Source: Centroscyllium fabricii (Eukaryota). From it: a stretch of DNA of 64,000 nt. The notes beneath the pieces are model-generated. The model saw nothing but the letters and a program-made list of their open reading frames with translations, ran no database searches and was not told the origin of the DNA. Location: the NCBI GenBank assembly GCA_051313645.2, contig JBNRSN020000016.1, positions 3,348,001-3,412,000 on the forward strand, read 5' to 3'. The translations under genes and the position numbers were made by a program. This document shows positions 5,805 to 64,000 of this stretch, in pieces (the stretch's first letter is position 1; every line of letters starts with the position of its first letter).

Positions 5805-5980
5805 TCATTGAATATATTCAAGAAGGAGCTGGATGTATTTCTTAAGGCTAAAGCGATCAAGGGATGTGGGGCGAGGGCCGGGACAGGGTACTGAGTTTGG
5901 ATGATCAGCCATGATCTCATTAAATGGCGGAGCAGGCTCGAGGGGCCGAATGGCCTACTCCTATCTCTTTGCTTCTATGA
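5805..5980 (+). mobile_element. 3' end of the CR1 interrupted at 1378
   Basis: ggctagt|tcattgaatatattcaag rejoins as continuous CR1 sequence and ends in a ...cttctatg tail. Confidence 0.8.
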
Positions 5981-24589: not shown

Positions 24590-26655
24590 CCTTGACTCCC
24601 AACGCACTCCTGGCCGACCTCCCACATTCTAGCCTCCGTAAACCTGAGCTCATCCAAAACACGGCGGCCCGTGTCCTAACTTGCACCAAGTCCCGTTCAC
24701 CCATCACCCCCTGTGCTCACTGCCCCGTGTCCGAACTCGTACCCAGTCCCGTTCACCCATCACCCCCTGTGCTCACTGCTCCGTGTCCTAACTTGCACCA
24801 AGTCCCGTTCACCCATCACCCCCTGTGCTCACTCCCCCGTGTCCGAACTCGTACCCAGTCCCGTTCACCCATCACCCCCTGTGCTCACTGCCCCGTGTCC
24901 TAACTTGCACCAAGTCCCGTTCACCCATCACCCCCTGTGCTCACTCCCCCGTGTCCGAACTCGTACCCAGTCCCGTTCACCCATCACCCCCTGTGCTCAC
25001 TGCCCCGTGTCCTAACTTGCACCAAGTCCCGTTCACCCATCACCCCCTGTGCTCACTCCCCCGTGTCCGAACTCGTACCCAGTCCCGTTCACCCATCACC
25101 CCCTGTGCTCACTGCCCCGTGTCCTAACTCGCACCAAGTCCCGTTCACCCATCACCCCCTGTGCTCACTGCCCCGTGTCCTGACTCGCACCAAGTCCCGT
25201 TCACCCATCACCCCCTGTGCTCACTGCCCCGTGTCCTGACTTGCACCAAGTCCCGTTCACCCATCACCCCCTGTGCTCACTGCCCCGTGTCCTAACTCGC
25301 ACCAGAGCCCAGTTCAACCATCACCCCCTGTGCTCACTGCCCCATGTCCTAACTCTCACCAAGTCCCGTTCACCCATCACCCCCTGTGCTCACTGCCCCG
25401 TGTCCTAACTCACACCCAGTCCCGTTCACCCATCACCCGCTGTGCTCACTGCCCCGTGTCCTAACTCACACCCAGTCCCGTTCACCTCTCACCCCCTGTG
25501 CTCACTGCCCCGTGTCCTAACTCGCACCGAGTCCCGTTCACCCATCACCCCCTGTGCTCACTGCCCCATGTCCTAACTCGCACCGAGTCCCGTTCACCTA
25601 TCACCCCCTGTGCTCACTGCCCCATGTCCTAACTCGCACCGAGTCCCGTTCACCCATCACCCCCTGTGCTCACTGCCCTGTGTATAACTCACACCGAGTC
25701 CCGTTCATCCATCACCCTCTGTGCTCACTGCCCCGTGTCCTAACTCACACCGAGTCCCGTTCATCCATCACACACTGTGCTCACTGCCCCGTGTCCTAAC
25801 TCACACCCAGTCCCGTTCACCCATCACCCCCTGTGCTCGCTGCCCCGTGTCCTAACTCACACCCAGTCCCGTTCACCCATCACCCCCTGTGCTCGCTGCC
25901 CCGTGTCCTAACTCACACCCAGTCCCGTTCACCCATCACCCCCTGTGCTCACTGCCCCGTGTCCTAACTCACACCCAGTCCCGTTCACCCATCATCACCC
26001 CCTGTGCTCATTGCCCCGTGTCCTAACTCACACCCAGTCCCGTTCACCCATCACCCCCTGTGCTCGCTGCCCCGTGTCCTAACTCACACCCAGTCCCGTT
26101 TACCCATCACCCCCTGTGCTCGCTGCCCCGTGTCCTAACTCTCACCCAGTCCCGTTGACCCATCACCCCCTGTGCTCGCTGCCCCGTGTCCTAACTCACA
26201 CCAATTCCCGTTCACCCATCACCCCCTGTGCTCACTGATCTACGTTGGTTCTCGGTTAAGCAATGCCTCGATTTCAAAATTCTCATCCTTGTTTTCAAAT
26301 CCCTCCATGGCCTTGGCCCTCTCTATCTCTAAATTCTTCCAGCTCCACAACCCCCGAGATATCGGCGCTCCTCTAATTCTGCCCTCTTGAGCATCCCTGA
26401 TTATAATCACTCCACCATTGGTAGATCTTCTGTTGCCTGGGCCCTAAGCTCTGGAATTCCCTGCCTAAACCTCTCCACCTCTCTCTTCCTCTTAGACACT
26501 TCTTAAAATCTCCCTCTTTGACCAAGCTTTTGGTCACGCCCTAATTTCTCCTTATGTGGCTCGGTGTCAAATTTTTTGTCTTATTATACACCTGTGAAGC
26601 ACCTTGGGATGTTTTACTACCTTAAAGGTGCTATATAAATACAAGTTGCTGTTGT
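24590..26655 (+). mobile_element. L2 LINE 3' fragment containing an expanded minisatellite
   Basis: NALLADLP..LIQNTAARVLT before the array; L2 sequence and an L2 tail (aaggtgctatataaatacaag) after it. Confidence 0.8.
24669..26237 (+). repeat. 56-bp minisatellite, ~28 copies
   Basis: Unit ccgtgtcctaactcgcaccaagtcccgttcacccatcaccccctgtgctcactgcc. Confidence 0.95.
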
Positions 26656-42749: not shown

Positions 42750-43739
42750 TGGTCACTTGATAAATGTGAGCAAAGGTGTGCAGATACACAGGTAATTGAA
42801 AGTGGCAGAAGAAGCACATGAGCCCAGAAAGAAGGCAAGCAGATTCTTTGCTTTTATGTCTCGAGATTGGGAATACAAGCCCTGAATCGCATAGGCTCTT
42901 GCCTTCTTGACTAGCCTCCTATGCGGGACTTCGTCAAAAGCCTTACTAAATAAAATCCATGTTTCCCACATCCATTGCACTACCCTCATCCACACACCTG
43001 GATACCCCCTCGAAAAATTTAATCAAATTGGTCAAACATGATCTCCCCTTGACAAAGCTATGTTGACTATTCTTGATTAATCCTTGCCTCTCCAAGTGGA
43101 GACTAATTCAGTCCCTCAAAAAATTTTCCAATAATTTCCCTACCACTGATGTTAGACTCACTGGCCTGTAATTCCCTGGTTTATCCCTACTACCCTTCTT
43201 GAATAATGGTACTACGTTAGCTGTTCTCCAGTCCTCTGGCACATCCCCTGTGGCCAGAGAGGTTCTGAAAATTTGTGTCGGAGCCCCTGCAATCTCCTTT
43301 GCCTCGCACAGCAGCCTGGCGATTTATCCACTTTTAAGCCTGCTAAAACCGTTAGTACCTCCTCCCTCTCGATACTAATTTGTTCAAATATATCACAGTC
43401 CCCCTGCCTGATTTCTATTCCTTTAGGGCATCCTCTCTCTCTAGTCCTTTGTATCTGCCAAAAGCCCCTCTTCCTAATCCATTTTCTCTCTTTCACCTGA
43501 CGAAGGGGCAAAAGCTCCAAAAGCTTGTGATTTAAAATAAAACTGTTGGACTATAATCTGGTGTTGTGTGACTTCTTGCATTTGTCCACCCCAGTCCAAC
43601 AGCGGCACCTCCACATCATGTATATCCCTTGACATCCAGGGTTCCCTGGGCTTGTTTGGCCCACCCTTGACCTTTACGGAAACATATTGCCATTATACTC
43701 TCTCAATTTTCTTTCTGAAAGACTCACTGCTCTGATGTG
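42750..43739 (-). mobile_element. Degenerate CR1 fragment carrying a Penelope pLTR insert (43487-43619)
   Basis: Collinear with parts of 2480-3460. It breaks at ...ctctgatgtg, where the GA microsatellite and RTE-X array begin. Confidence 0.8.
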
Positions 43740-43880
43740 AGAGGGAGTGTGTGTGAGGGAGAGAGGGAGTACGTGTGTGGGAGAGGGGGAGGGAGGGTGA
43801 GAGAGCGGGAGGGAGTGAGTGAGGGGGAGGAAGTGTGAGGGAGGGAGTGTGAAAGGGAGGAAGTGAGAGTAGGAGTGAGT

Positions 43881-44075
43881 CAAATTTTGGAAACATCTAT
43901 AAATGAGCACATGCGTGATGACGTCGGGCACGTTTGTGCGCATGCGCGGTGATGTCATGACATCGGCGTGTCGGCACCGGCCGCGAGGGAGCAGCGCGCC
44001 TCGGGGGCCGGTGCCTGAAGTCTGTGGGTCTGACGGATTCGTCGGTGCATAGCGATCCGCCACGTGTGTGTGTGT

Positions 44076-44106
<31 letters not shown>

Positions 44107-44241
44107 TTATACATGGGTATATTTGTCCATTCACTTTGTCTAGATCTGCGTTTGTATGTTCAATTGTATATGTCCTTTTTCTGTGCTTTGGCAACATAAG
44201 ATGTATCTTGTCATGCCAGTAAAGCAATCTGAATTTAATTG
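43881..44241 (+). mobile_element. RTE-X-like unit A (short remnant + 3' tail)
   Basis: Starts caaattttggaaacatcta (KFWKHL, as in units B and F) and ends gctttggca..tgccagtaaagc..aattg, followed by GA repeats. Confidence 0.65.
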
Positions 44242-44415
44242 AGAGGGAGTGTGAGAGAGTCAGAGAGAGAGAGAGAGAGAGAGTGTGTGAGAGTCAGAGA
44301 GAGAGACTGGCCCATCCCACACATGGAAAAAAAACTACAATAAAAAACCAACTTATTACAATAAATGACCAATCTTAACATGAAATCGTTGCGCATCTCG
44401 ACCTGGAATATCCAA

Positions 44416-45086
44416 TGTAAGAAGTCACACAACACCAGGTTATAGTCCAACAGTTTTATTTGAAATCACAAGCTTTCGGAGCGTTACTCCTTCATCAGGT
44501 GTAAGAGAGATGCATTTAAACACAGCATACATAGTCGGAGAACAATGTAATCTTGCAAAATCATCGAGCAGAGGCTGATAGCCAAGTTCCGCACTCATGA
44601 GCATGGCCTCAACCGAGATCTTGGCTTCATGTCGCACTACATATGACCCCACCTGACGTCGTCATCCAGACTCGAGTTGTCTTTGGCTTGTCCTCACTAC
44701 AGATGCAGCTGGACCGGCTGCTATTTCCAGCAAGAAAAATCTTTTTTTTTATTGTTCTGTGTGGGTTTTCACACAGACCCAGACTGCAACATTTGACCCT
44801 TTGTGACTGCACCTCATTGTTCCTGGGGTGGTGCCTGCCTGACTGACTGATCTGTTTAAACACCATTCACACCTTTGATTGCTATGAATGTCTCTCTGCC
44901 GAGGTGTGATGAAGGGCAGTTGGAAAGATTACATTGTTCTCCGTCTATATATGCTGTGTCTCTTACACCTGATGAAGGAGCTGTGCTCCGAAAGCTTGTG
45001 ATTTCAAATAAAACTGTTGGACTATAACCTGGTGTGCGACTTCTTACATTTGTCCACCCCAGTCCAACACCGGCACCTCCACATCA
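44416..45086 (+). mobile_element. Penelope-like element: inverted pLTR + GIY-YIG C-terminal remnant + pLTR, 12-bp TSD
   Basis: 44554-44646 encodes CKIIEQRLIAKFRTHEHGLNRDLGFMSHYI*. Long inverted repeats (~135 bp). TGGAATATCCAA occurs at 44404-44415 and 45087-45098. Confidence 0.85.
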
Positions 45087-47249
45087 TGGAATATCCAAGG
45101 CCGACGCTCTTATGTGTTTGGTTTGAACAGCAGGACCCCAGAGTTCTTAGAGGAAATCAAAGATCTGGACATTATGATTTTGCAAGGAGCCTGGTGTAGA
45201 GGAGAATGGTCCACTGGGTGTCCCCCTGGGTACACAGAGTTGGTGGTTCCCTCCAATAAACTGCCAGGCGTAACCCAGGGTAGAGTGACTCAGGAGGCAT
45301 GTTGATTTGGCTTAAAGCAGAGATTAGGAATTGCATTGAATTTATAATAAAGGGCGAAAATCATATGTGGCTCAAGATTAAGAAAGACAATTTCTAGCAG
45401 GCAGAATGTTTTTATCTGCACAATCTATATCCCCCCTATAGAATCCCCATACTCCAAAGAGGACACCTTCCCCAACATTGAGAGAGAGATGAGCCATTTC
45501 CAGGCCCTTGGAAATGTGTTGATCTGTGGTGATCTCAACTCAAGAACTGGTGAAGAATCAGACTTTATCAGTTCTCGGGGGAATAATTACATATTTGGGA
45601 ATAACCATTTTGATCTTCCTTCTCGTTCACACAGGAATAATTACGACTAACAAACAAACGCAAATGGAAAGCAGCTCCTGCAGCTCTGTCGAAGCCTGGG
45701 TCTGTACATTGTCAACGGTAGGTTCAGAGGGGACTCTCTAGGAAGATCAATCTACTCTTCACCTCTTGGCACCAGCACCGTAGACTATATGATTACGGAT
45801 CTGGATCCATCCTCTTTCAGAGCATTCACAGTCAAACCACAAACACCTTTGTCAGATCACAGCCAAATTACTGCGTATATCAAAAGGGCAGAAACAACCA
45901 ACACAGAAACACAGCCCAGTAAGCTGTACAACATTTAAAAATCACACAGATGGGCCCAAAGCAGCACTGAAAAATACCAAAAAGCGACTGACTGCTAATT
46001 GCTTTTTGGTATTTTTCAATCAACTCAATCTCTCTTAGGCACCTTTCTGGAAAACACATACACCCACAATAAAGAAGGCGTAAATCTGGCAGTGAACAAC
46101 ATAAATCATATTTTTGATAATTTGGCATCAATGTCCGACTTGAAATTTTCCCAGAATAAATCCAAAACACAAAATCACAAAAAATGGTTTGATTCAGACT
46201 GTCATAACAGGAGGAAAAAACTCAGAAAAATATCAAACCAAAAACACAGACAACCAGAAAATGAGGAATTAATGTCAGGCACTAACACTAACACAATATA
46301 AAAACACACTCCGAACCAAGAAAGAACAGTATATTAAGAAAAAACTCAGCGTCATTGAAGAATCTATTCATTCTAATTGTTTCTGGGACAGCTGGAACAC
46401 ATTACACAAAAAGCAACAAGATGAATTGCCCATTCAAAATGGAGAGATATGGGAAAACCATTTTGAATGGGCAATTCATCTTGCTGCATACTAAACGAGA
46501 TGCTTAAACACACTGACAGTAAATTGAAATTGGCTATCCTGAAACTCTTCAACTTGGTTCTGAGTGTCGGTTACTTCCCTGATGTCTGGAACAAAGGACT
46601 CATGATGCCCATATATAAAAGTGGAGACAAACTCGACCCAAATAATTACTGAGGCATCTGTGTGAACAGTAATCTGGGGAAGGTATTCTGTAGTATAAAC
46701 AAAAGACTTACAAACTTTCTTACGGAGCACAATGTCCTGAGTAACAGCCAAATTGGATTCTTACCAAATTATAGAACATCTGACCATATTTTCACCCTAC
46801 ACACCCTAATTGACAAACATGTCCACCAAAACAAAAGCAAAATTTTTGCCTACTTTATAGATTTCCAACAGGCATTCGATTCTATTTGGCACGACGGTCT
46901 ATTCTTAAAACTTATTGAAAGTGGGGTAGGGGGAAAAACATACTGTAATGATATTGAGACTTCTGGCAGGAAGTCGGATGAACTCTGCTTATGAACTTCC
47001 AGTGACATCATTTCCTGTACATGTCACTTCCTGTGTAGTAGTATAAATTCTGCTACTATTCAGTCTGAGATAATGCTTCTCTATGTAAATATGTTAAAAC
47101 TCTCAACTCTGTAAATAGCTGATTAAAGCTTTGCTTAAAGTATTTGATGTGTAAGTCGCTTTTGTCACATCAATTTAATCAGCTACTACGCTCAAAATTT
47201 TTGACACCTTCGGACAAAAAGGAACTGAGGACCCAGGGAACCACCCATC

Positions 47250-48154
47250 ATGGAGAGCCTCTTCAAACCCAGAACTCTTGACCTGGATCCGAACTCGCCA
47301 TCAGCCGCAAAGGTATGGAAGCACTGCTACCATACTTTTGAAAATTTCCTGGAAGAATGTGGTGCGAGTGATACTGCTAAACTCCGGCTACTGGTAAACT
47401 ATGTATCCCCTAACGTGTATGAATATCTGGACAATTGGGATAACTTTAATGAAGCAATCCGAGCTCTTAAAGAACTGTATACAAAGCCACCCAACGAGAT
47501 TTATGCTAGACATATACTGGCCACAGCCCGGCAAGGGCCGGAGGAATCTATCGGTGAATTCCTGCAGACACTGCGCAGGCTCAGTACGAACTGTAACTTT
47601 CAGGCAGCCTCGGCCGCGCTTTACCGTGAGGAAATGATCCGCGATGCCTTCATCAGCGGGATTTCCTCCCCACTGATACGCCACTGGAGAGTAAGGCCCT
47701 AGAGTTGCAAAAAACTTTCGAACTGGCTTGCTCTCTTGATCTAGCAAAAAGAAACTCAGATCTTTATCAGTGGCCCAGAGCTCGAAGTGCTGCTGTAACT
47801 TCAAGCAGACCTTTCAAGGGGCCACAGGTGAACCCAATCATAGACGACTCTAGCCCTGATGAGCTTAGTGATGAGGAGGAGGATGACCCTACACTAGCAG
47901 CCTCTTGGCAGTCCAGGAAAAACTGCTTCTTTTGTGGAGATATCTTCCACCCAAGAAAATTCTGCCCAGCCCGTAATGCAATCTGCAGCTACTGCAGCAA
48001 AAAAGGGCACTTTGCAAAGGTGTGCCAATCCAGAACTTCTGCACGAGCTAATCAAGCTAGGCCCTACAGAGCTGCTCCAATTAGGGCCTACCAGGGTGCA
48101 TCAATTAGGCCCTATCAAGACGCACCAGCCAGGACCTATCAGGCTCCCACTTGA
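47250..48154 (+). pseudogene. Gypsy gag (frameshifted near 47690-47705), with tandem zinc knuckles
   Basis: ARQGPEESIGEF..LRRL...C.F and IRDAFISG capsid-like motifs; CFFCG..HPRKFC and CSYCSKKGHFAKVC knuckles. Confidence 0.85.
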
Positions 48155-48193
48155 AGGAGCTCGTCTAGAATCACTGCTGCACTCTGTGCTATC

Positions 48194-51022
48194 ATGCCAA
48201 TAACAGCTGCATGCCCTCAGAATCTGGTCCAGGCAGCCACAAGGGTCACAATTAATGGATATGCTTTTGATGCCCTAATTGACTCTGGTAGCACCGACAG
48301 CTTTATTAAGGGGCAAATCGTTAAAAAATTGAAACTGCACACTTATCCATCAGACCAGGCAATTGCAATGGCCCAATCTTCTCTTAATACTAGAATCTCG
48401 GGCTTCTTTATTGTGGACTTAACCCTTAATGGGCGCCTGTATCCCTCCACCCGTCTCTCAGTCCTTAAGGATCTATGTAGTGATATAATTCTGGGACTAG
48501 ATTTCCAAAGACAACATAACAAGCTGACCATTGAGTTCGGGGGTTCTAAACCCGGACTCATTATCTCTAAATCATCCAAAACGCCATTTTGTGCACTGTC
48601 AGCAGCCTCTCTGGACGAACCATCGTTATTTACCAGCGTTATGCCTCAGTGCAAGCCGATAATAACTAAGTCTCGGCGCTTTAGTCAGGAGGATCGATCC
48701 TTCATTAATACAGAAATCTCTCGACTCCTGGCCGAGGACATCATTGAACCTTGTTCATCGCCTTGGCGGGCTCAGATTGTCATTGTTAAAAACTCTTTGA
48801 AACCTCAGAAGAAACGCCTATGTATCGATTACTCTCAGACCGTTAATCTATATACAGATTTGGATGCTTACCCACTGCCACGTATCGATGATATGGTGAA
48901 TAAACTGGCTGAATATTCTGTATTCTCAACTTATGACCTGCAGAGTGCTTACCATCAGGTACCCCTACGGGCCTCGGATAAGAAATATACAGCCTTTGAG
49001 GCTAACGGACGATTGTATCAATTTTGCCGTCTCCCATTCGGAGTCACCAACGGAGTAGCCGTCTTTCAACGAGCCATGGATGGCTTGGTGAAGCAAGAAG
49101 ACTTGAGGGACACTTTCCCTTATCTCGACAATATTACGGTTGCTGGCCATGACCAACAAGAACATGACGACAACCTTCGAAGATTTCGGGATGCACTTTA
49201 TCGTCGCAATCTGACTTTAAATGAAACCAAATCCGTGGAATCACAGCCAACCATTAATATTCTCGGCTACTGTGTGGGTAATGGCATCATCAAGCCTGAT
49301 CCTGAAAGACTTCGGCCCCTCCAGGAGCTTCCTCCACCTAACAGTCCTGCTTCCTTGCGTCGGGCCCTCGGCCTATTTGCCTACTATGCGAAGTGGATTC
49401 CGGATTTTTCTGACAAAATTCAACCTTTGTTGAATGCCAGGACATTTCCATTAGGAACAATGGCCATTACAGCCTTTACTACCCTTAAACAACATTTGAA
49501 GACAGCAACCCTCCACTCCATCGATGAGAACCTTCCATTCGTGGTCGAATGTGACGCTTCAGAGGTGGCGATCTCAGCTACCCTCAATCAGGAAGGTCGC
49601 CCTGTAGCTTTCATGTCTAGGACCCTACAGGGTGCCGAAGTGCACTATCCACCGGTGGAAAAAGAAGCCACGGCCATCATTGAGGCTGTACGAAAATGGA
49701 ACCATTTTTTAGCTCGCCGACACTTCACGCTGATAACGGACCAGCGATCAGTAGCGTTCATGCTGGACAATCGCAAAAGAACCAAAGTCAAGAACAATAA
49801 AATACAACTGTGGAGGATGGAATTGGCCTCTTTTGGCTATACTATTCACTATCGCCCTGGTAAAGATAATGTGGCCCCGGACACTCTTACTCAAGCATTC
49901 TGCGCTGCTACATCACCCTCCACTCTCGCAGATATTCATGATGGATTATGTCATCCTGGTGTGACACGTATGTTACATTTTGTAAGGTCACGAAATCTCC
50001 CATTCTCAACCGGAGACATCAGGAAAATGTGTTCGGAATGCAGAACCTGTGCTGAGCTAAAACCCCACTTTTTTCGGCCCCCTGATGGTGTACTTATACA
50101 TGCGACACAACCAATGCAACGACTGAGCATTGATTTTAAGGGCCCAGTACCCTCGTCCACTAGGAACATATATCTGCTTACGATGGTCGACGAATATTCA
50201 CGTTTCCCATTCGCCTTCCCCTGCTCTAATATGCTGTCTTCCACAGTAATCAATTGTCTCGAACAGGTATTCACGCTCTGTGGCATGCCAGCTTACATCC
50301 ATTCGGATCGGGGTCCATCTTTCATGTCCACTGAACTTAAGGACTGCCTCTCGGAAAGAGGTATCGCGACAAGCAAAACAACACCATACCACCCCATCGG
50401 TAACGGCCAGGTAGAACGATATAATGGCATCATATGGAACTCTGTACGCCTTGCCCTGAAATCCCAGGGTCTACCCAACCAGCAATGGGAGATGGTGTTA
50501 CCAGATGCATTGCACTCCATACGGTCCTTGCTTTCCACAGCCACGAACACGACGCCTCATGAACGGTTCTTCAGTTTCCAGCGTCGCTCATCGTATGGAG
50601 CATCACTCCCTTCATGGCTGACCACTCCAGGGCCCGTATTGCTCCGGAGATATGTCCGAACCTCCAAGCATAACCCTCTTGTGGACGAGGTAGAACTAAC
50701 GGAGGTCAACCCCACCTACGCTCACATACGACACCCTGACGGACGAGAGTCTACAGTATCGTTGCGGGACCTGGCACCCTGCCCATCAGGACCTAGAGGG
50801 TCATCTAGGGATAATACCCTACCGGGAACCTCCAGAGAACCACTAGGTACCACTCTTCAGGACCCCGATCAGGCACCAATGACCTTTGAGCCAGTAGGAT
50901 CCCGCACTCGGAGCTTCGACTCACCTGGTACCTCATTCCAGGATGCTGCTCAATCCTCGACTGACACGGAGCCCATAGGGGCTCGTACGCGGAGTCATGA
51001 TCCTCTCTGTGCCCCATGCTAA
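48194..51022 (+). CDS. Gypsy pol polyprotein (protease, RT, RNase H, integrase)
   Basis: LIDSGS (PR); LPFG..YLDN (RT); ECDAS..EKEA..TDQ (RH); HHCC plus IDFKGP..VDEYSR..SDRG..NGQVER (IN). 942-aa open frame. Confidence 0.93.
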   Translation: MPITAACPQNLVQAATRVTINGYAFDALIDSGSTDSFIKGQIVKKLKLHTYPSDQAIAMAQSSLNTRISGFFIVDLTLNGRLYPSTRLSVLKDLCSDIILGLDFQRQHNKLTIEFGGSKPGLIISKSSKTPFCALSAASLDEPSLFTSVMPQCKPIITKSRRFSQEDRSFINTEISRLLAEDIIEPCSSPWRAQIVIVKNSLKPQKKRLCIDYSQTVNLYTDLDAYPLPRIDDMVNKLAEYSVFSTYDLQSAYHQVPLRASDKKYTAFEANGRLYQFCRLPFGVTNGVAVFQRAMDGLVKQEDLRDTFPYLDNITVAGHDQQEHDDNLRRFRDALYRRNLTLNETKSVESQPTINILGYCVGNGIIKPDPERLRPLQELPPPNSPASLRRALGLFAYYAKWIPDFSDKIQPLLNARTFPLGTMAITAFTTLKQHLKTATLHSIDENLPFVVECDASEVAISATLNQEGRPVAFMSRTLQGAEVHYPPVEKEATAIIEAVRKWNHFLARRHFTLITDQRSVAFMLDNRKRTKVKNNKIQLWRMELASFGYTIHYRPGKDNVAPDTLTQAFCAATSPSTLADIHDGLCHPGVTRMLHFVRSRNLPFSTGDIRKMCSECRTCAELKPHFFRPPDGVLIHATQPMQRLSIDFKGPVPSSTRNIYLLTMVDEYSRFPFAFPCSNMLSSTVINCLEQVFTLCGMPAYIHSDRGPSFMSTELKDCLSERGIATSKTTPYHPIGNGQVERYNGIIWNSVRLALKSQGLPNQQWEMVLPDALHSIRSLLSTATNTTPHERFFSFQRRSSYGASLPSWLTTPGPVLLRRYVRTSKHNPLVDEVELTEVNPTYAHIRHPDGRESTVSLRDLAPCPSGPRGSSRDNTLPGTSREPLGTTLQDPDQAPMTFEPVGSRTRSFDSPGTSFQDAAQSSTDTEPIGARTRSHDPLCAPC

Positions 51023-52472
51023 AATGCCAATGGGCCATCGACAAGCTTGGTACCTTCTCCCGACCAAGGGCAGATCAACTCTGAACCTGTTGGATCTCGC
51101 ACACGGAGCCATGATTTCCACTACCCATCGCCGGGTAATCCAGGCCATGTTGGATTTGACCCAGATTCGAAGACCCGCAAACGGCCCAGTAACTCAGACA
51201 TTGACCATCAAGACAGTCTACCAACCCAAGAGAGCGAACTTAAACGTATGCGGCTCCTCATACAACTGCTTCAGAATATTTGATTTCTGCCTCATAATCT
51301 TCTAGGAGGGAAGAATGTAATGATATTGAGACTTCCGGCAGGAAGTCGGATGAACTCTGCTTATGAACTTCCAGTGACATCACTTCCTGTACATGTCACT
51401 TCCTGTGTAGTAGGATAAATTCTGCTACTATTCAGTCTGAGATAATGCTTCTCTATGTAAATATGTTAAAACTCTCAACTCTGTAAATAGCTGATTAAAG
51501 CTTTGCTTAAAGTATTTGATGTGTAAGTCGCTTTTGTCACATCACATACGATGTAATTAAATCAATGAACACAGGTAACAAATGTGCAGTTAAAATCAGA
51601 GACAAACAAACAAAATATTTCTCACAGGGTCGTGGCGTGGCACAGGGCTCGTCTAACTCACTGACTCTTTTTAATATTTATATAAATAAACTGGCAAAAC
51701 TACTGGAACAATCTACAGCACCTGGCCTCGCCCTACATGACTCTGAGGTTAGATTCCTCCTCTATGCAGATGATCTGGTTCTGCTGTCACCAACAGAAGA
51801 GGGTCTACAGCAGAACCTTGATCGGCTAGAGTCGTTCTGCCAGAATTGGGCCTCGACAATAAACCCCCAAAAAACTAAAGTTCTTGTGTTCCAGCAAAGA
51901 TCCAGACATCAGGGAACCAAAACAAACTTCACACTAGGAGCAACTAAAATGGAACAAACTACAAACTATACCTACTTAGGCTTAAAAATCAGTTCCACGG
52001 GAAATTTTCATTTGGCTGTGAATGAACTGAAAGAGAAAGCAAAAAGGGCTTTCTATGCCATTAAGAAGTCAATCCAAATAGAAATTCCAATTGGCATTTG
52101 GATCAAAAAAATTTAATCAGTAATTGAACCAATCGCACTTTATGGCAGTGAGGTGTGGGGTCTGCTAACACACCACGAATTTGCAAAATGGGACAAACAC
52201 CTAATTGAGACTCGACATGCTGAATTCTGTAAGAGTATCCTCCGGACTCAGAGGAAAACCACAAACAATGCATGCAGGGCAGAGTTAGGCCAATATCCAC
52301 TATTAATTAATATCCAAAAAAGAGCCATCAAATTTGGAAAACATCTAAAATTGAGCAACCCCCACAGCTATCACTACAAAGCCCTGAAATGCCAAGAAGC
52401 GAACATAAAGAAAAGTCCCCTCAGCCAACTGGTCCTGGGACTCAGCGAAGTAACTACTAACACTATTGGTAA

Positions 52473-53258
52473 TGGCCCTGTCACACCTTGACATTTTAGC
52501 CAGCGTATGCAAATTTGGCTAAAACGCTGGGTTACATCGGATACGTTATGGGTACGTTTTGCATACGTTAAGAGCACGCTGGCATACGCTGGCCATAAGT
52601 TGCATACGTCGTTGTACTCCGAGTAAGTCGAGAAATTTTGAGCATGCACAAAATTTCTCGACGTACCTTGCGTATGATTCACACGTTCCGCATACGCTGG
52701 CCATACGTTGTAGGCACGTTAGGCGATCGTTGACACACGTCGACACATGTTACTTGTAAGTTAGTCATAAGTCAAAATACGTCGAGATAATGTCTAGCGT
52801 ACCCGGAACTTATTTCTAACCTATGAGTAACGTGCTTTGAACCTATGTGTAACGTATCTCCAACGCATATTGACGTATTTGACGTCTTCCGGACGACCAC
52901 AGAACTTATGCCCCTGTCATGCCCTGTCACACCTTGACGATTTAGCTAGCGTATGCCGACGTATCAAAATTTATCTAAAACATCGGCGATACGCTGCCGC
53001 GCGCTATGCATACATTAGACTATCGTTGGGCATAAGTTGTGAACGCCGACAACACGCTAAGCATTCGTTGGTATAAGTTATCTGTAACTTATCGAAACGT
53101 TCTGTGTACGTTACTAATACGTTATGCATACGTTATGCGTACGTCCAACTCGTTATGAATACGCTATTATACGGCCAAAACTGAAAAAAACATCGATAGT
53201 TCAGCGTTTTAGCCAAATTTGCATATGCTGGCTAAAACGTCAAGGTGTGACAGGGCCA
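52473..53258. mobile_element. PIF/Harbinger-like MITE, ~57-bp TIRs, TAA TSD
   Basis: TAA|TGGCCCTGTCACACCTTGAC...GTCAAGGTGTGACAGGGCCA|TAA. The empty-site sequence ggTAAcaacc is visible in unit F. Confidence 0.85.
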
Positions 53259-54224
53259 TAACAACCAGCCCCAGGACAGTGACATCCTAGCCCACAGAAT
53301 TTGACCCAACACAATTATTACTAAACAAAGAGAAAAATATTTGACATACTGGACAGAAACGACAAAAACCCAAAACAAACTAGATTGTTATTTGGCCCTA
53401 AACAGACAGTACACCATGGCTGATTACCTGACCATGGTGAAAGATAGCAAACTGAGAAAAACCCTGACAATGTACAGACTTAGTGAGCACAGCCTAGCCA
53501 TCGAAAAAGGCAGACACAGAAAGACTTGGCTGCCCAGAGAGGAAAGGCTGTGCTCCCACTGCAGTCAGAGAGTGGTATAGACAGAGCTGCACTTCCTCAC
53601 AACTTGCGAAAACTATCAGGGAATAAGGGGAAATTTCTTCCCAAAATTTGTAACATGCCCTGAATTCAAAAATTTGAACGACCACCAAAAACTCCCATAT
53701 CTATTGGGGGAACAGAGGGACTGTATAAAATTAGCGGCAAACTACGTCACAGCTTGCCATAAGCAGAGGGACAACCAGTGACCATTGAAGCTAGGAAGAG
53801 CATACAAGATCTATATGCGGGTATATATGTATGTGTTTGCATAGTTATTCATTCAACACGTCTGGTTATGCATTTGTATGTCCAATTGTATATGTTCTTT
53901 TTAGATCTACATGTGGGTTTTTATGTGTATGTGTATGCATAGTTATTCATTCAATACGTCTGGTTATGCATTTATATGTCCAACTGTATATGTTCTTTTT
54001 CTGTGCTTTGGCAACATAGGATGTATCTTGTCATNNNNNNNNNNNNNNNNNNNNNNNNNNNNNNNNNNNNNNNNNNNNNNNNNNNNNNNNNNNNNNNNNN
54101 NNNNNNNNNNNNNNNNNNNNNNNNNNNNNNNNNNNNNNNNNNNNNNNNNNNNNNNNNNNNNNNNNNNNNNNNNAGAGAGGGAGAGTCAGATAGAGAGAGT
54201 GTGAGAGAGAGAGAGTGAGAGAGA

Positions 54225-54755
54225 CTCAGTAACCATAATCTAGAAATAGAAAAGGGACGCCATAGGAAGCACTGGAAACCAAGAGAGGAGAGGATATGTA
54301 AAAACTGTGATTCAGGAGAGATAGAAACGGAATTCCACTTTCTTCTCTCATGCCCAACATATGAATCTCTCAGAAGGGCTTTCCTAAGTCAAGTTAGAAA
54401 CAGTATCCCATCATATGACAGCAAAACATGTGATGAAAAAATACGCATATGTCTGGGAGAAACATCAGAACTTCTCGAGTTAGCTGCAGAATATGTGACA
54501 GCATGCCATGATGCAAGAGAACACTTGAACATTGGACATCTCAGTCCCAATCTGATCACAGCTAAACCACTGTGACAAACTGCATTTAAACTATATATCT
54601 ATTGATATTATTACTGATGCTGTTGTATATATTCTGTTTGTACTGTTGTTATTACGTCTATTAATGTACTATTTTTGTGTATATTACAATGCTTTGGCAA
54701 CAACGGTTGATACCATTCATGCCAATAAAGCTATTTGAATTTGAATTTGAATTTG
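54225..54755 (+). mobile_element. RTE-X-like unit C (3' fragment)
   Basis: LSNHNLEIEKGRH..REERICKNC...ETEFHFLLSC, 3' stem-loop and (ATTTGA)n tail. Confidence 0.82.
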
Positions 54756-54830
54756 TGAGAGAGAGTCAGAGAGAGAGAGCGAGAGCCAGAGAGAGAGAGT
54801 GAGTGAGAGAGTCAGAGAGAGTGAGAGAGA

Positions 54831-57800
54831 CAGGGAAATGTGCTACTATGTAGGGACCTGAATGCGAGGACCGGATGTGAACCCGATTACATAGACCCAC
54901 ATGGCAACAACCATGTGTTCGGTCAAACCCCCTTGTACGTCACACCAACCATCACCAACCGGAACAACCTTGACTGTGAAATAAATAAAAGTGGCAGAGA
55001 GGTAGTGCATCTCTGTCGAGCCTTAGGCCTGTACATAGTTAATGGTAGGTTCAGAGGGGACTCGCAGGGGAGGTTCACATATTCCTCAGCTCTTGGGTCT
55101 AGCGTGGTGGACTATGCAATCACTGACATGGACCCCTGTACTATCAGTGCATTCACTGTTAGGCAGCAATCCCCTCTCTCAGGCCATAGCCAAATCAATG
55201 TGTACCTAAAATCTTCTGTTCAAACTAAAGACATAAAAAAGGAGCCCAGTAAGCTGTATAAAATAAATCAGACATACAGATGGGCTCCAGACAGTGGAGA
55301 TAAGTTCATCATGGCCCTGAATACACCTGACCTCACAAATAAAATATCAAAATTCAAGATAAACCTATATGAGACTACCAGAGATGGTGTAAACATGGCC
55401 ATAGATGACATCAACATGATCTTTCACAGGGCAGCTATTAAAGCTGACCTTGTGAAACAGAAAAGAAAAATTATTAAAAAATACAACCATGAAAAATGGT
55501 TCGACCACGAGTGCAAAAGTGTCAGGAAAGATCTGAGAAGGATATCGAACCAAAAACACCACCAACCAAACAACCCAGACTTGCGTATTAGATATAATGA
55601 AACTCTCAAAAGATATAAACACACTACTAGGAACAAAAAACAAAATTACACCCACAAAAGACTTGAAGAGATTGAAAACTCCATAGATCAAAACCAATTC
55701 TGGGATATGTGGAATAATCTGAGCACAACAAAACCACAAACATTACCAATTCAAGATGGTGATATCTGGAGAGCACATTTTGAAAACCTATATAAAGACA
55801 TCCCAATAAATAAAATAAACTCAAATTACTCTCATACCAAAGAAAAACTCCAAGCATTAGAAACAACAATTAAAGACTACCAAAACCCTCTCGACTTCCC
55901 GATTACTTCGGAAGAATTGGTCACAAAAATAAAATCTCTCCACTCAAAGAAAGCCTGTGGTACAGACATCAAAAATGAAATGCTCAAGTACAGCACTCCA
56001 GAGATGCAGGACGCAGTGCTCAGGCTATTCAACCTCATATTACGTTCGGGCTATTTTCCTGATAATTGGTGTCAAGGGCTTATTTCGCCCATTTATAAGA
56101 GCGGAAACAAATCAGACCCAAACAATTACCGTGGCATCTGTGTCAGTAGTTGCCTAGGGAAGTTATTCTGCAGTATTATAAATAGTAGAATGCAGGATTT
56201 CCTTAGCAAACATAATATCCTCAGTAAAAACCAAATTGGCTTCCTTCCGAAACACCGCACCACTGACCATATCTATACCCTTCACACTCTCATTGGAAAA
56301 CATATACACCAAGCAAAAAATGGTAAAATATTTGCATGTTTTATTGACTTTAAGAAAGCATTTGACTCTATATGGCATGAAGGGCTCTATTACAAACTTC
56401 TCCATTGTGGTATAGGAGGAAAGGTATATGACCTTATTAAATCAATGTATCTGAACAATAAATGTAGTGTTAAAATTGGGGACAAATGCACTGGTCTCTT
56501 CACCCAGGGGAGAGGCGTCCGGCAAGGCTGCAATCTGAGCCCGACACTGTTTAATGTGTATATAAACGATTTGGCAGTAAAGTTGGACCAGAGCGCAGCG
56601 CCGGGCCTCCGTCTTCTGGACGGAGAGGTAAAATCCCTGTTTTATGCGGATGACCTGGTTCTGCTGTCTCCCACAGAACAGGGACTGCAGCAACAGTTAG
56701 ATCTACTCGATGAGTACTGCCAAAATTGGGCCCTGACAGTAAATCTGAAGAAAACCAACATCATGATTTTTCAAAAAAAAAACAGATGTCAGGAAGACAA
56801 ATACCAATTCACTCTTAAAGATACCATTATCGAACACGCTATGAGCTACACTTACCTTGGTCTAACCATTGCAGCATCAGGGAGCTTCAGCATGGCAGTG
56901 AATGCACTAAAAGAGAAAGCTCGAAGGGCTATGTATGCAATCAAAAGAAAATTCTACAACATCCAAATTCCAATTAAAATCTGGCTTAAAATATTTGATA
57001 GTGTAATCCAACCCATTGCGCTTTATGGTAGTGAAGTATGGGGTTCGCTCAGTCATCATAGTTATGTTAAATGGGAAAAACACACAGTGGAGGCCCTACA
57101 TGCGGAATTTTGCCGGAGCATCCTCCGCACCCAAAGGAAAACACCAACAAACGCATGTAGGGTGGAATTAGGCAGATACCCACTGATAATAAATATCCCA
57201 AAAAGAGTATTAAATTTTTGGAATCACCTTAAATCTAGTCCCCCAGACTCCCTCCAGTTTAAAGCCCTCCAAACCCAAGAGCGGAACCCAGAAAAGAGTC
57301 CCCTGTGTCAGTTGGTATTGAGACTAACTACCCCTACTCAGTCAAACCTTGACCAGTCTCAGATCAACACTGCTTTCCAAACACCAATTAGAGTGGACCA
57401 AATCATCAAAAAATGCAAAGAAACCTATTTGGAACATTGGGATAAAGCAACCAAAAACCAAAGCAGATTAGAATGTTACCGTGCCCTAGAAAGAGATTAT
57501 AAATTGGCAGACTATCTTTCAACTGTCAGAAATATAAAGCAGAGACAGACCCTCACCAGGTACAGACTAAGTGACCACCAGTTGGCAGTCGAAAAAGGAA
57601 GACAGAAGAAATCCTGGCAGCCAAGAGAAAATAGAATATGCGGTCACTGCTTGACAGATGAGGTTGAAACAGAGATGCACTTCCTCCTAAAATGCAAAAA
57701 ATTCAACAAAACAAGGAGAACCTACTTTGACAAACTAAGCCTGGCAATCCCAGATTTCAAAGAACTAGATGATATCTTAAAAGTAAGAATAATCCTTGGC

Positions 57801-58147
57801 GAGGGAAATAGGGCACAGCTTGGTGCACAATACGTAACAGCATGCTACAACCTGAGAGACAGTGAATGACCAACATGCACACATGCACGCACACACAAAC
57901 AGAGACTAATCAACACTAATTATTATACTGTTTGAAACTGCAATGACATGTAGCAACCGAAAAAAGGTTACAGATGTGTATATATATATATATATATACA
58001 CATATATACAGGGGCATATCTGCCCATACATTGTATACCTGTATCTGTATCTGTATTTATGCATTTTAACTATGTATGTTATGTTTTATACTTTGGCAAC
58101 ATAGGGATATATCCTGTCATGCCAATAAAGTTTTTAAATTGAAATTG
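54831..58147 (+). mobile_element. RTE-X-like unit D, 5'-truncated with an uninterrupted 1009-aa ORF (54840-57869)
   Basis: Partial APE (DLNAR, VDY), RT (IDFKKAFDSIWH, GVRQG, FYADD) and C-terminal CGHC..HFLLKC. Confidence 0.88.
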
Positions 58148-58195
58148 AGTGAGTCAGGCAGAGAGAGAGAGTGTGAGAGAGTCAGAGAGAGAGAG

Positions 58196-60290
58196 CTCAT
58201 TTTACGTGCAGGCGATTTTCCAGATATCTGGTGCCAAGGGCTTATCTCGCCCATCTATAAGAGCGGAAACAAATCAGAACCAAACAATTACCGCGGCATA
58301 TGTGTCAGTAGCTGCCTAGGAAAGCTATTCTGCAGTATTATAAATAGTAGAATGCAGGATTTCCTCAGCGAACATAATATCCTCAGTAAAAACCAAATTG
58401 GCTTCCTCCCGAAACACCGCACCACTGACCATATCCATACCCTTCACACTCTCATCGAAAAACATATACACCAAGTAAAAAATGGTAAAATATTCGCCTG
58501 CTTTATTGATTTTAAGAAAGCATTTGACTCTATCTGGCATGAAGGGCTCTACTACAAACTTCTCCATTGCGGTATAGGAGGAAAGGTATACGACCTCATC
58601 AAATCAATGTATCTGAACAATAAATGTAGGGTTAAAATTGGGGACAAATGCACTGGTCTCTTCACCCAGGGGAGAGGCGTCCGACAAGGCTGCAATCTGA
58701 GCCCGACACTGTTTAATATATATATAAACGATTTGTCAGCAAAACTAGAACAGAGCACAGCGCCGGGCCTCCGTCTTCTAGACGGAGAGGTTAAATCACT
58801 GTTCTATGCGGACGACCTGGTTTTGCTGTCTCCCACAGAACAGGGACTGCAGCAACAGTTAGATCTACTCGATGAGTACTGCCAAAACTGGGCCTTGACA
58901 GTAAATCTAAAGAAAACAAACATCATGATTTTTTTTAAAAAAAACAGATGTCAGGAAGACAAATACAAATTCACCCTTAAGGATACCATTATCGAACACA
59001 CCATGAGCTACACTTACCTTGGTCTAACCATTACAGCATCAGGGAGCTTCAGCATGGCAGTGAATGCACTAAAAGAGAAAGCTCGAAGGGCTATGTATGC
59101 AATCAAAAGAAAATTCTACAACATCCAAATCCCAATTAAAATCTGGCTTAAAATATTTGATAGCGTAATCCAACCCATTGCGCTTTATGGTAGTGAAGTG
59201 TGGGGTTCGCTCAGCCATCATAGCTATGACAAATGGGAAAAACACACAATGGAGGCCCTACATGCGGAATTCTGCCGGAGCATCCTCCGCACCCAAAGGA
59301 AAACACCAACAAACGCATGTAGGGCGGAACTAGGCAGATACCCACTGATCATAAATATCCAAAAAAGAATATTAAATTTTTGGAATCACCTTAAATCTAG
59401 CCACCCAGACTCCCTCCAGTTTAAAGCACTCCAAACCCAAGAGCGGAACCCAGAAAAGAGTCCCCTGTGCCAGGTGGTGCTGAGACTAACTACCCCTACC
59501 CAGTCAAACCTTGACCAATCTCAGATCAACACTGTTTTCCAAACACCAATTAGAGTGAACTAAATTATCAAAAAATGCAAAGAAAAATATTTGGAACATT
59601 GGGAAAAAGCAACAAAAAACCAAAGCAGACTAGAATGCTACCGCTCCCTAGAAAGAGACTATAAATTGGCAGACTATCTTTCAACTGTCAGAAATATAAA
59701 GCAGAGACAGACCCTCACCAGGTACAGACTAAGTGACCACCAGTTGGCAGTCGAAAAAGGAAGACAGAAGAAATCCTGGCAGCAAAGAGAAAATAGAATA
59801 TGCGGTCACTGTTCGACGGATGAGGTTGAAACAGAGATGCACTTCCTCCTAAATTGCAAAAAATTTAAAAAAACAAGGAAATCATACTTTGACAAACTGG
59901 GCCTAGAAATCCCAGATTTCAAAGAATTAGATGATACCCTAAAACTAAAAATAATCCTTGGCGAAGGAGACAGGGCACAGCTTGGTGCACAATACGTAAC
60001 AGCATGCCACAACCTGAGGGACAATGACTGACCAATATGCACACATGCACGCACACACAGGCAGAAAATGACCAACATTGACTGTGATATTGATTGAAAC
60101 TGCATTTAAGCTATATATCTACTGATATTACTACGGATGCGGCTGTATATACTCTGTTAGTACTGTTGTTATTACGTCTAATAATGTATTTTATATATAT
60201 GTTATAAATGTATTTCTATGTATGTTAAAATGCTTTGGCAACAAAGGTTGATACCATTCATGCCAATAAAGCTATTTGAATTTGAATTTG
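58196..60290 (+). mobile_element. RTE-X-like unit E, 5'-truncated, one premature stop at 59561-59563
   Basis: Closely similar to unit D in the coding region; (ATTTGA)n tail. Confidence 0.88.
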
Positions 60291-60346
60291 AGTGTGTGAG
60301 AGAGTCAGAGAGAGAGTGTGAGAGAGTCAGAGAGAGAGAGTGTGAG

Positions 60347-60381
<35 letters not shown>

Positions 60382-60588
60382 CGGAGAGAGTGTGTGAGAG
60401 AGTCAGAGAGAGAGTGTGAGAGAGTCAGAGAGAGAGAGTGTGAGAGAGTCAGAGAGAGTGTGAGAGAGTCAGAGAGAGAGAGTGTGAGAGAGTCAGAGAG
60501 AGAGTGTGAGAGAGAGAGAGAGTCAGAGAGAGAGAGTGTGAGAGAGTCAGAGAGTGTGAGAGAGAGAGAGAGTCAGAGAGAGAGAGTC

Positions 60589-60619
<31 letters not shown>

Positions 60620-60625
60620 GAGAGA
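60291..60625. repeat. (GA)n microsatellite with GTCA/GTGT interruptions
   Basis: The same satellite type occurs at 43740-43880, 44242-44306, 54174-54224, 54756-54830 and 58148-58195. Confidence 0.95.
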
Positions 60626-61795
60626 CTCATTGAAAGTGGGATGGGGGAAAACATACGATGTAATTAAATCAATGTACACAGGTAACAAATGTGCAGTTAA
60701 AATCGGAGATAAACAAACAAAATATTTCTCACAGGGTCGTGGCGTGGCACAGGGCTCGTCTATCTCACCGACTCTTTTTAACATTTATATAAATAAACTG
60801 GCAAAAATACTGGAACAATCTACAGCACCTGGCCTCGCCCTACATGACTCCGAGGTCAAATTCCTCCTGTATGCAGATGATCTGGTTCTGCTGTCACCGA
60901 CAGAAGAGGGTCTATGGCAGAACCTTGATCGGTTAGAGTCATTCTGCCAGAATTGGGCCTTGAAAATAAACCCCAAAAAAATTAAAGTCCTTGTGTTCCA
61001 GCAAAGATCCAGACATCAGGGAACCAAAACAAACTTCACACTAGGAGCAACAAAAATCGAACAAACTACAAACTACACATACTTAGGCTTAAAAATCAGT
61101 TCCACGGGAAATTTTCACTTGGCTGTGAATGAACTGAAAGAGAAAGCTAAAAGGGCTTTCTATGCCATTAAAAAGTCAATCCAAATAGAAATTCCACTTG
61201 GCATTTGGATCAAAATTTTTAATTCTGTAATTGAACCAATTGCACTTTATGGCAGCGAGGTGTGGGGTCTGCTAACACACCACAAATTTGCAAAATGGGA
61301 CAAACACCCAATTGAGACCCTACATGCTGAATTCTGTAAGAGTATCCTCCGGACTCAGAGGAAAACCACAAACAATGCATGCAGGGCAGAGTTAGGCCAA
61401 TATCCACTATTAATTAATATCCAAAAAAGAGCAATCAAATTCTGGAAACATCTAAAACTGAGCAACCCCCACAGCTATCACTACAAAGCCCTGAAATGCC
61501 AAGAAGCGAACATAAAGAGAAGTCCCCTCAGCCAACTAGTCCTGGGACTTAGCGGAGTAACTACTAACACTACTGGTAACAACCAACTTAGCGGAGTAAC
61601 TACTAACACTACTGGTAACAACCAACTTAGCGAAGTAACTACTAACACTACTGGTATCAACCAGCCCCAGGACAGTGACATCCTAGCACTCAGAATCCGA
61701 CCCAACACAATTATTACTAAACAAAAAGAAAAATACTTGAATTACTGGACAGAAATGACAAAAACCCAAAACAAACGAGATTGTTATTTGGCCCT
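60626..61795 (+). mobile_element. RTE-X-like unit F (same subfamily as B), interrupted by a Gypsy element
   Basis: ORF 60630+ is nearly identical to 51545-53400 once the MITE is removed. Confidence 0.88.
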
Positions 61796-64000
61796 TGTAG
61801 TATCGTCGATTACTCCAATTAAAAGATGACAAGTAGATACCGAAACTAAAAGGCTTTTAATTGCTAAACAATGGAGCTACTCTCCAGACGAACAACTGTA
61901 CAGAACAGGGTGGAGCCACACCTATATAGAGGCTCACAAGGGGAGGAGTTGGGGGTGTGGCTGACCTGGCTCCCAACAAGATTACAGTAAACAGGGCTGT
62001 GCCCAACATCTGCACAGCCCATAATTAGTCATGGTAATACATTGGAATAACTGTGGAATATAGTGGAATAGAACGGTTACCACATTCACCCCTTCTTAAA
62101 AACTTTGAGTCCAGGGGGGTGAATGGATCGAACAGTTCATTATAAGACGGTCCAGCGGTAGTTTCTTCCTGGAGGACTGTCGGCGCACCGGTGTTGGAGG
62201 TGATGCCTCCATGGTTGAATAGTCCGCCTCTGCCGGCGCTGTGACTTCCGGTGGCGGTGTGCTCGTCGGGTCGCAGTCAGGGAAACTCGGGGGCAATCCT
62301 GTGTCTGGTGGGTGAACAACTTGATGGCCGGCGGGGGGTGCTGTCGTGGTGTTTCCGGCCGGGGCCAGGTCCCTGATGGACACGGTGTCCTCACGCCCGT
62401 CTGGGAACTGCACGAAGGCGTAGTGCGGGTTGGCGTGTAGTAGCTGTACCTTGTCCACCAGGGGGTCCGTTTTGTGGCTCCGGACGTGTCTCTTAAGTAA
62501 AACCGGCCCCGGAGTCGTCAGCCATGGGGGAAGGGCTGTTCCCGAAGTAGACCTCCTGTGGAACGAAAAAATGAGATCATGCGGAGTGGCGTTAGTAGCA
62601 GTACACAACAGTGATCGGATAGAGTGCAGCGCATCTGGGAGGACTGCCTGCCAATGGGACACTGGAAGGCCTCTGGACTTGAGAGCCAGGGTGACCGCCT
62701 TCCAGATGATCCCATTCTCCCTTTCTACCTGGCCATTCCCCCGGGGGTTATAACTGGTCGTTCTGCTCGTGGCAACCCCTCTCTGGAGCAGAAACTGGCG
62801 CAGTTCATCGCTCATGAACGATGACCCCCGGTCGCTATGGATGTAGCCGGGGAGACCGAAAATGGCGAACAGCGTGGTGAAGTGTTTGATCACCGTTGCG
62901 CTCATCATATCTGGGCAGGGGAAAGCGAAGGGGAAGCGGGAGAACTCATCCACTACCGTGAGGAAGTATGAGTTGCGGTCAGTGGAGGGGAGGGGGCCTT
63001 TGAAGTCTACGCTGAGACGTTCAAAGGGGTGGGTGGCCTTGATGAGATGCGTCGTGTCTGGCCGGAAAAAGTGGGGTTTGCACTCGGCACAGACAGGGCA
63101 CTCTCTGGTTATATCCTTGATCTCTGTGATGGAGTAGGGGAGGCTACGGGATTTGACGAAATGGGCGAGTCTGGTGACACCCGGGTGACAAAGGCGGTCG
63201 TGGAGGTCCTTCAGCCGGTCTAGCTGGGCACTGGCGCACGTTCCCCTGGACAGTGCGTCCGGGGGTTCATTGAGTTTACCTGGTCGGTAAAGAATGTCGT
63301 ACTCGTAAGTCGAGAGTTCGATCCGCCACTGCAGGATCTTATCATTCTTGATTTTACCCCGTAGTTTATTATTAAACATAAACGCCACCGAACGTTGGTC
63401 GGTGAGCAGGGTAAAACGCTTACCGGCCAGGTAATGACGCCAGTAGTGCACGGCCTCCACAATGGCCTGAGCCTCCTTTTCCACTGCAGAGTGGCGAGTC
63501 TTGGGTCCCTGTAGGGTGTGGGAGAAAAACGCTATGGGCCTGCCTGCCTGATTCAGGGTGGCAGCAAGGGCAAAGTCCGAAGCGTCGCTCTCCACCTGGA
63601 AGGGAATGGATTCATCAACAGCGAGCATGGTCGCCTTGACGATGTCTTCCTTTATCCTTGCAAAAGCCGTCTGGGCTTCTGCAGAAAGGGGGAAGGCGGC
63701 AGCCTTGAGAAGTGGTCTAGCCTTATCTGCGAACTGTGGGACCCATTGTGCATAATAGGAGAAAAATCCTAGGCATCTCCTCAAGGCTTTGGGGTTGTGA
63801 GGTAGGGGCAGTTCTTGCAGGGGTCGCATACGCTGTGGGTCGGGGCCGAGGAGCCCGTTCTCCACCACGTATCCGAGAATGGCGAGCCGGGTTGTATTAA
63901 AGACACATTTGTCTTTGTTATACGTAAGGTCCAGCTTGTCCGCCGTGGCGAGGAATTTGGCCAGATTGGCATTGTGGTCCTGCTGGTCGTGGCCGCAGAT
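61796..64000 (-). mobile_element. Second Gypsy element (3' LTR 61796-62084, PPT, pol RT-RH-IN), running off the window
   Basis: ORF 62096-63868 is homologous to the 48194-51022 pol. PPT gaaggggtgaa (minus strand) precedes a TG..CA LTR. Confidence 0.92.

Follow-up and report, generated by a model that had tools for sequence, protein, structure and literature searches.

The window analysed here is a 64,000-nucleotide stretch of the Centroscyllium fabricii genome (contig JBNRSN020000016.1 of the 7.2-Gb assembly GCA_051313645.2; C667:3348001-3412000). From 43.7 kb onward it holds an array of long interspersed nuclear elements (LINEs) of a single family, which we take to be RTEX-like on its architecture rather than on a tree with reference elements. 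Six copies, A to F, follow each other head to tail on the + strand with GA/GT satellite between them, and a seventh, G, lies beyond the window edge in locus L091, after the rest of copy F. A first-pass annotation had described six + strand copies in GA satellite, with differing 5' ends and from three subfamilies, and BLAST searches and sequence identities bear this out. Compared with longer natural copies, B and F form one subfamily (94.5%), D and E another (92.7%) and C a third type, with about 68% identity between B/F and D/E, and the 5' truncation points differ from copy to copy. The three subfamilies and distinct truncation points rule out tandem duplication as the origin of the array and uphold the independent retrotranspositions proposed earlier. 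The transposon island of more than 18 kb described at the time proves both longer and less pure: with the remainder of F, copy G and the satellite in L091 the array spans about 26 kb, and about 8 kb of the 18-kb island belongs to other, nested elements. As had been noted, no family copy precedes 43.7 kb in the window (BLAST with unit D and self-BLAST), and a search with family references over the preceding 10 kb (L095) was likewise negative.

Copies, spacers and nested elements

The left edge of the array is a G-rich GA/GT/GGGA tract (43739..43880, + strand), followed by copy A (43881..44241, +). Differing truncation points hold for the array, whereas plain 5' truncation of every copy does not, copy A being a composite of an ORF-like scrap of about 28 bp that was read by eye (ORF, open reading frame), a GC-rich dispersed repeat (about 43922-44063; an inverted stretch in L179 matches it at 88%), a B-type 3' untranslated region (UTR; 85-86% to B-type copies) and a degenerate tail. 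Likewise, the GA satellite reported at every 5' junction is found as tracts before the copies, but the junction of A is the weakest of the array, its preceding tract being G-rich and not GAGTCA. A GA/GAGTCA spacer (44242..44307, +) leads to copy B (44308..54034, +; 88-95% to L125 and L128), which retains the end of the ORF1-ORF2 linker, a broken ORF2 with apurinic/apyrimidinic endonuclease (APE), reverse transcriptase (RT) and a C-terminal Cys/His motif, and the 3' UTR, interrupted by three nested insertions. The 3' end and tail of B are hidden under an N run (54035-54173), after which come a GA satellite spacer (54174..54224, +) and the 5'-truncated copy C (54222..54756, +), which ends in an (ATTTGA)n tail and is 98.5% identical to a longer copy in L119. 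Beyond the next GA/GAGTCA spacer (54757..54830, +), copy D (54831..58148, +; 97.5% to L112) keeps an open frame of 1014 codons, covering the C-terminal half of APE, RT and the C-terminal domain, together with its 3' UTR and tail. A further GA/GAGTCA spacer (58149..58195, +) separates it from copy E (58196..60291, +; 96.5% to L191), in which a D-like ORF is joined to a C-type 3' UTR (81% to the C type). The longest satellite spacer, about 330 bp (60292..60625, +), precedes copy F (60625..61795, +), which is of B type, interrupted, and continued outside the window at L091:2800-3487. The tails of A, C, D and E enter GA directly, as first described.

Combinations of a D-type or B-type ORF with a C-type UTR are seen in E (58196-60291) as well as in L021, L122 and L123, which suggests that 3' UTRs may be swapped between subfamilies by template switching or recombination. 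Within ORF2 of copy F lies an in-frame triple repeat of 39 bp (61547-61663). After copy G, about 0.8 kb of satellite in L091 contains 11 AATTGAATTGA pieces of the LINE tail (5127-5935, with the unit also at 3540-3570), spaced by 50-100 bp; the insertion of a tail alone may have seeded a minisatellite here.

Nested insertions with their own duplications number three in copy B and one in copy F. Those in B are a dispersed repeat flanked by a 12-bp duplication (44416..45086, strand not assigned), presumably Penelope-like; a Gypsy-type long terminal repeat (LTR) retrotransposon with the 5-bp duplication CATAC (46944..51544, +) and Pfam matches to protease, RT, RNase H and integrase, which is young (LTRs 98.7% identical, pol frame of 955 codons); and an inverted-repeat element with a TAA duplication (52473..53258, strand not assigned), presumably Harbinger-like. 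A second LTR retrotransposon on the - strand (61796..64000, ending at L091:2799; 5-bp duplication GCCCT) splits F. Elsewhere in the window, a C-rich minisatellite of 28 copies of a 56-bp unit (24668-26237) contains no family insertion. A GC-rich repeat with GCGCATGCGC motifs adjoins the TA-rich part of the family 3' UTR in L140, L159 and L074, and a similar motif occurs in the window at 17065-17208.

In the long B-type copy L125, the ORF1 region combines a coiled stretch with an SGNH-type esterase, and APE and RT come after it. Its ORF2 matches Pfam Exo_endo_phos (3.5e-9) and RVT_1 (7e-40), and its ORF1 matches Lipase_GDSL_2 at E=2e-4, which is under the Pfam cut-off, PAF-AH at 2e-5 and the ORF1 protein of PDB entry 4c1b at 0.0018. 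Such esterases are found in CR1, RTEX and Penelope-like elements, while RTE proper has a rudimentary ORF1 or none, according to the part of PMC3905857 cited here; the esterase ORF1 points away from the Tx1 clade. The best named protein match of copy D is WPH61295.1, a reverse transcriptase of Somniosus microcephalus (81% amino acid identity), and a trout cluster representative reaches 64%; relatives are present in trout, huchen, seabream, carp, characins and frogs. In 18 sequences the catalytic positions of APE do not vary, and a structure model of APE (pLDDT 81) has the L1 endonuclease as its best match. Hairpin-loop length was considered as a sign of specificity and rejected as not diagnostic: T230-S238 encloses 7 residues, compared with 9 in L1 and 7 in an R1Bm graft, and the loop is of low confidence in the model. 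Two metagenome scans and one viral scan yielded no loci from other species, and a scan of genome contigs gave 4 matches, two of them chance-like and two short fish-like fragments with one GA-rich and one A/G-rich 3' flank, which are anecdotal. L312 and L314, short contigs of bacterial assemblies with a family-type 3' end, look like fish DNA contamination. Among 158 proteins scanned, one predicted protein of Sparus aurata (P0056) opens with an RE repeat that leads into the RT region, and so represents a truncated relative next to a GA tract in a teleost.

Flanks across the genome and a same-tail control

The genome contains 10,424 instances of the exact B-type 3' end and 1,353 of the D anchor. 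Among 29,246 terminated (ATTGA)3 tails, 1,830 enter (G[AT])5 and 13 enter its reverse in either phase. This share of 6.3% entering GA/GT compares with an expected 0.21% if any GA were used, or 0.78% if any GAG were; the 12-mer GA(G[AT])5 occurs 1,840,674 times in the genome. In a census of all 81 D-anchored copies on C1, 11 3' flanks were GA/GT (13.6%, confidence interval (CI) 7-23%), none was TC/AC in reverse and 70 were ordinary, an enrichment of about 35-fold over the background of 229/59,820 windows (0.38%) taken from 15 arbitrarily chosen 10-kb regions. Both counts confirm the fixed orientation claimed for the family. GA flanks were also found in 5/17 family copies of other types from a generic-tail sample, in 3/9 of a C2 sample (9 of 19 listed places, one of the three without family assignment), in 13/26 best matches to D (3 of 29 were dropped with no 3' end called) and in 2/17 best matches to F (12 of 29 were dropped, the locus being without a 3' end). 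Pooled after duplicate removal, 33 of 174 copies are GA-flanked (19%, CI 13-26%) and 141 lie in ordinary DNA, while controls gave 0/65. About 80-85% of copies insert into ordinary DNA and about 14-19% into satellite. In the part of PMC4494074 cited here, Kojima (2015) treats a LINE as target-specific when the target type makes up more than 20% of flanks; beside this rule stand the D census and the pooled set with the shares just given, the nearest relatives of D with half of their flanks and the other-type copies with 5 of 17.

The sequences entered are also more varied than the (GA)n/GAGTCA to which the target was initially confined, and include GT/GA, GAAA, GATA and GACA units. Seven 10-kb stretches of C1:83.11-83.36 Mb contain 25 tails in GA or GT/GA satellite, 25/25 on the + strand, and L111-L113 hold arrays of mixed subfamilies in GATA/GAAA/GTAACAGA-type units. 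Satellite is present at both ends of copies, and its units differ from locus to locus but agree between the two sides of a copy; therefore the satellite is the target and not a constant part of the element's 3' end, in agreement with the earlier view. Of the 27 GA-3' copies whose 5' junction could be called, 13 have GA on both sides by a strict score; GA stands only on the 3' side in 14 copies and only on the 5' side in 7.

A second LINE with the same tail serves as a control within the genome. When 60 generic ATTGA tails on C1 were assigned, 17 belonged to this family, 40 to another 3' end and 3 remained without assignment; since 43/60 were not of this family, generic tails were dropped as a family count and reused as a control. 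The main other family with this tail is an APE-RT LINE, which we take from its motifs to be Rex1/Babar-like. It has about 76,700 anchor matches (L161-L250) and a similar CAATAAA signal followed by the same (ATTGA)n tail. Counted on forward-strand matches, 160/38,547 Rex1-like tails (0.4%) run on into GAGAGA, while B gives 910 of at least 5,333 and D 89/663 (13-17%), where the 17% of B is an upper bound because its denominator comes from a stricter pattern, and anchors and gap lengths are not identical among the three counts. Flank censuses placed 0/30 and 0/40 Rex1-like copies in GA/GT. With the same tail and no enrichment in the Rex1-like LINE, tail pairing alone does not explain the GA preference.

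Solo copies carry a related signature. Duplications of 5-10 bp were called in 33/124 of them, compared with 8.6 in shuffled data, and often overlap the TGA/GA of the tail; Rex1-like controls gave 5/56 against 1.65. The suggestion that each insertion preserves or duplicates its target therefore holds in that satellite lies on both sides, while the duplication itself is short and called in a minority. Downstream of solo copies G exceeds C in 98 of 133 loci and falls below it in 31, whereas the 64 control loci divide into 33 and 31. The word N[AT]G follows the tail in 38/124 solo copies and 8/64 controls. Inside ORFs that are presumably CR1-like, 13 copies lie in sense and 1 in antisense, compared with 2 and 5 for controls. 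In one dispersed repeat, the 3' junctions of four copies, from two subfamilies, are nearly identical. A skew restricted to the downstream side was considered as a finding of its own and discarded as largely an artefact of 5'-junction calling.

The D type may differ among its lineages. A tree of 69 D-type 3' ends places the GA-flanked copies in two supported groups (5/6 and 15/33; members of the larger were picked for their similarity to copy D of the window), with 0/30 elsewhere; census rows alone give 6/13 against 0/30 (p=3e-4, post hoc). Shuffle tests of this clustering are marginal (32-42 of 500, and 21-28 of 500 for an ORF tree), and B copies show no clustering of GA flanks (346/500 shuffles as low). 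Age was rejected as the cause, as GA-rich and GA-free older branches are similar in length. We treat the lineage difference as a lead only. Tentatively, an RTE-group LINE part-way to microsatellite specificity could be imagined, with sub-lineages that differ heritably in their GA/GT rate, from none of 30 to about half or more in the two others, and a G-strand preference that is ancient and common to teleost relatives.

How the satellite may be chosen

Target-primed reverse transcription is established for LINEs. We think it fairly probable that the seven separately truncated, co-oriented RTEX-like copies in one GA/GT satellite arose by repeated target-primed insertions, driven by a preference of the family's own machinery (probably of the endonuclease) for nicking C/T-rich strands that face G-rich DNA. 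This reading takes in the enrichment, the single orientation, the absence of both from the same-tail LINE, the G-strand bias of solo copies and the short target duplications, all of which are directly observed. The strand nicked by the endonuclease would be the one facing words like GA-G(A/T)-G or GA-TA-G, and the (AUUGA)n end of the RNA could form 1-3 base pairs with the 3' end freed in this way. A GA/GT satellite would offer one such site per two bases in a single orientation and so act as an oriented, reusable sink; as every insertion would leave satellite on both sides, the tract could be struck again and grow head to tail. Where the first-pass annotation had named an endonuclease or a priming preference, the oriented preference is strong and the priming half is weakened by the Rex1-like control.

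Several points weigh against this nicking preference, in addition to the uneven anchors and the bounded B share of the tail comparison. The 5' side of solo copies shows no G bias (65:56 in 123 loci), both sides are skewed alike (21:12 and 21:11) only at the 33 loci where a duplication was called, and the skew reaches about 300 bp, far past an endonuclease footprint. Among the first 30 B copies on C1 (first 73 Mb) just one is GA/GT-flanked, and one 3' end out of 237 (L004) faces the TC strand. Array copies are not fully independent counts. Moreover, R-loops or fork-associated single strands would yield an equal strand bias, and the role of the endonuclease is one that we infer.

The last point leads to the strongest alternative, which we nevertheless hold unlikely, that the state of the target matters rather than its sequence: asymmetric G-rich/C-rich DNA forms R-loops, triplexes and single strands, and the ribonucleoprotein enters on one side. 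A strand skew spanning hundreds of bases, the many unrelated satellite units and the sense strands of CR1-like ORFs would all follow, but the Rex1-like LINE of the same genome shows no skew, and near-identical junction positions recur in one dispersed repeat. Self-perpetuating RNA guidance, in which source copies resident in satellite are transcribed past their tail and the GA-rich stretch added to the RNA pairs with TC strands elsewhere, seems less likely still. It could account for the confinement of GA-flanked D copies to two sub-lineages and for the excess of copies with GA only on the 3' side; yet tails join the local, locus-specific unit directly, at times at non-GA bases (L002, L017, L029), no common transduced piece is seen, several one-sided cases look like nested insertions, and the B copies lack clustering.

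Quite improbable is passive accumulation, by which random insertions would persist in gene-poor satellite while inverted ones were purged: the regional clustering of satellite matches and the three unrelated elements nested in B fit it, but the more abundant same-tail LINE is not enriched, 17 GA-flanked copies stand alone (with no other family 3' end in the locus) and 0 sampled focal copies are reversed. We give very little weight to tail microhomology alone, in which an RNA with GA at its end can prime at any GA of the target; junctions keep the GA phase and a correlation of tail and target is described for RTE-clade LINEs in the part of PMC6007223 cited here, but the Rex1-like family has the same tail at a rate at least 30-fold lower, and the expected share is only 0.2-0.8%. 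Strict, Kibi-like microsatellite targeting, as first proposed for (GA)n/(TC)n, is hardly credible and refuted for the family as a whole by the C1 census, since 70/81 census and 141/174 pooled copies, equally young ones included, lie in ordinary DNA, a majority of non-GA flanks being what the first-pass annotation itself had named as refuting, even though the window array and other arrays sit wholly in satellite and 13/26 of the closest D relatives are GA-flanked.

Relation to known microsatellite-targeting LINEs

In the parts of the sources cited here, reported microsatellite targeters comprise Kibi, Koshi, Mino, Waldo, Dong, Togen, some HERO and crocodilian Tx1 elements (PMC3812793, PMC4494074, PMC4640811, PMC6007223, PMC3905857, PMC1950540, PMC5753468, PMC3747384, bioRxiv 10.1101/2024.09.09.611499), and target-specific LINEs are reported mostly in early-branching, Tx1 and R1 groups (PMC4640811). 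Literature searches brought up no account of a microsatellite preference in RTEX, although supplements or Repbase entries may already note one. Fish RTEX-clade LINEs and WPH61295.1 have an esterase ORF1 as here, and the same searches found no target preference in print for them. For the RTE clade, Nishiyama and Ohshima (2018) describe a microsatellite-like RNA tail that correlates with the first bases of the target and a weak site preference; the signature there is an upstream T stretch, and the cited part of PMC6007223 reports neither a satellite sink nor a G-strand bias, nor does its main text mention 'RTEX'. Mino and Waldo (R1 clade, AC/ACAY), among them Drosophila Waldo-A/B, are LINEs in dinucleotide repeats; the excerpted part of PMC3812793 attributes Waldo-A/B to passive accumulation, whereas the same-tail control and single orientation argue otherwise here.

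An oriented but leaky preference, quantified with a same-tail control in the same genome, allows site choice driven by protein to be told apart from tail pairing, and gives studies of the evolution of specificity an intermediate state to work on. It likewise accounts for the growth of small satellites into large co-oriented LINE islands in a genome of this size. The closest parallels are Kibi on (TC)n and Koshi on (TTC)n, both of the Tx1 clade, and the crocodilian Tx1 families on (TTCC)n/(TTTC)n (PMC4494074, PMC3812793, in the parts cited). Like the present family, these are vertebrate APE-type LINEs tied to purine/pyrimidine microsatellites; they are described there as specific and belong to Tx1, whereas the family in the window places a minor share of its copies in satellite, enters many unit types and carries an esterase ORF1. 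Most likely, it works like Kibi, but far less strictly.

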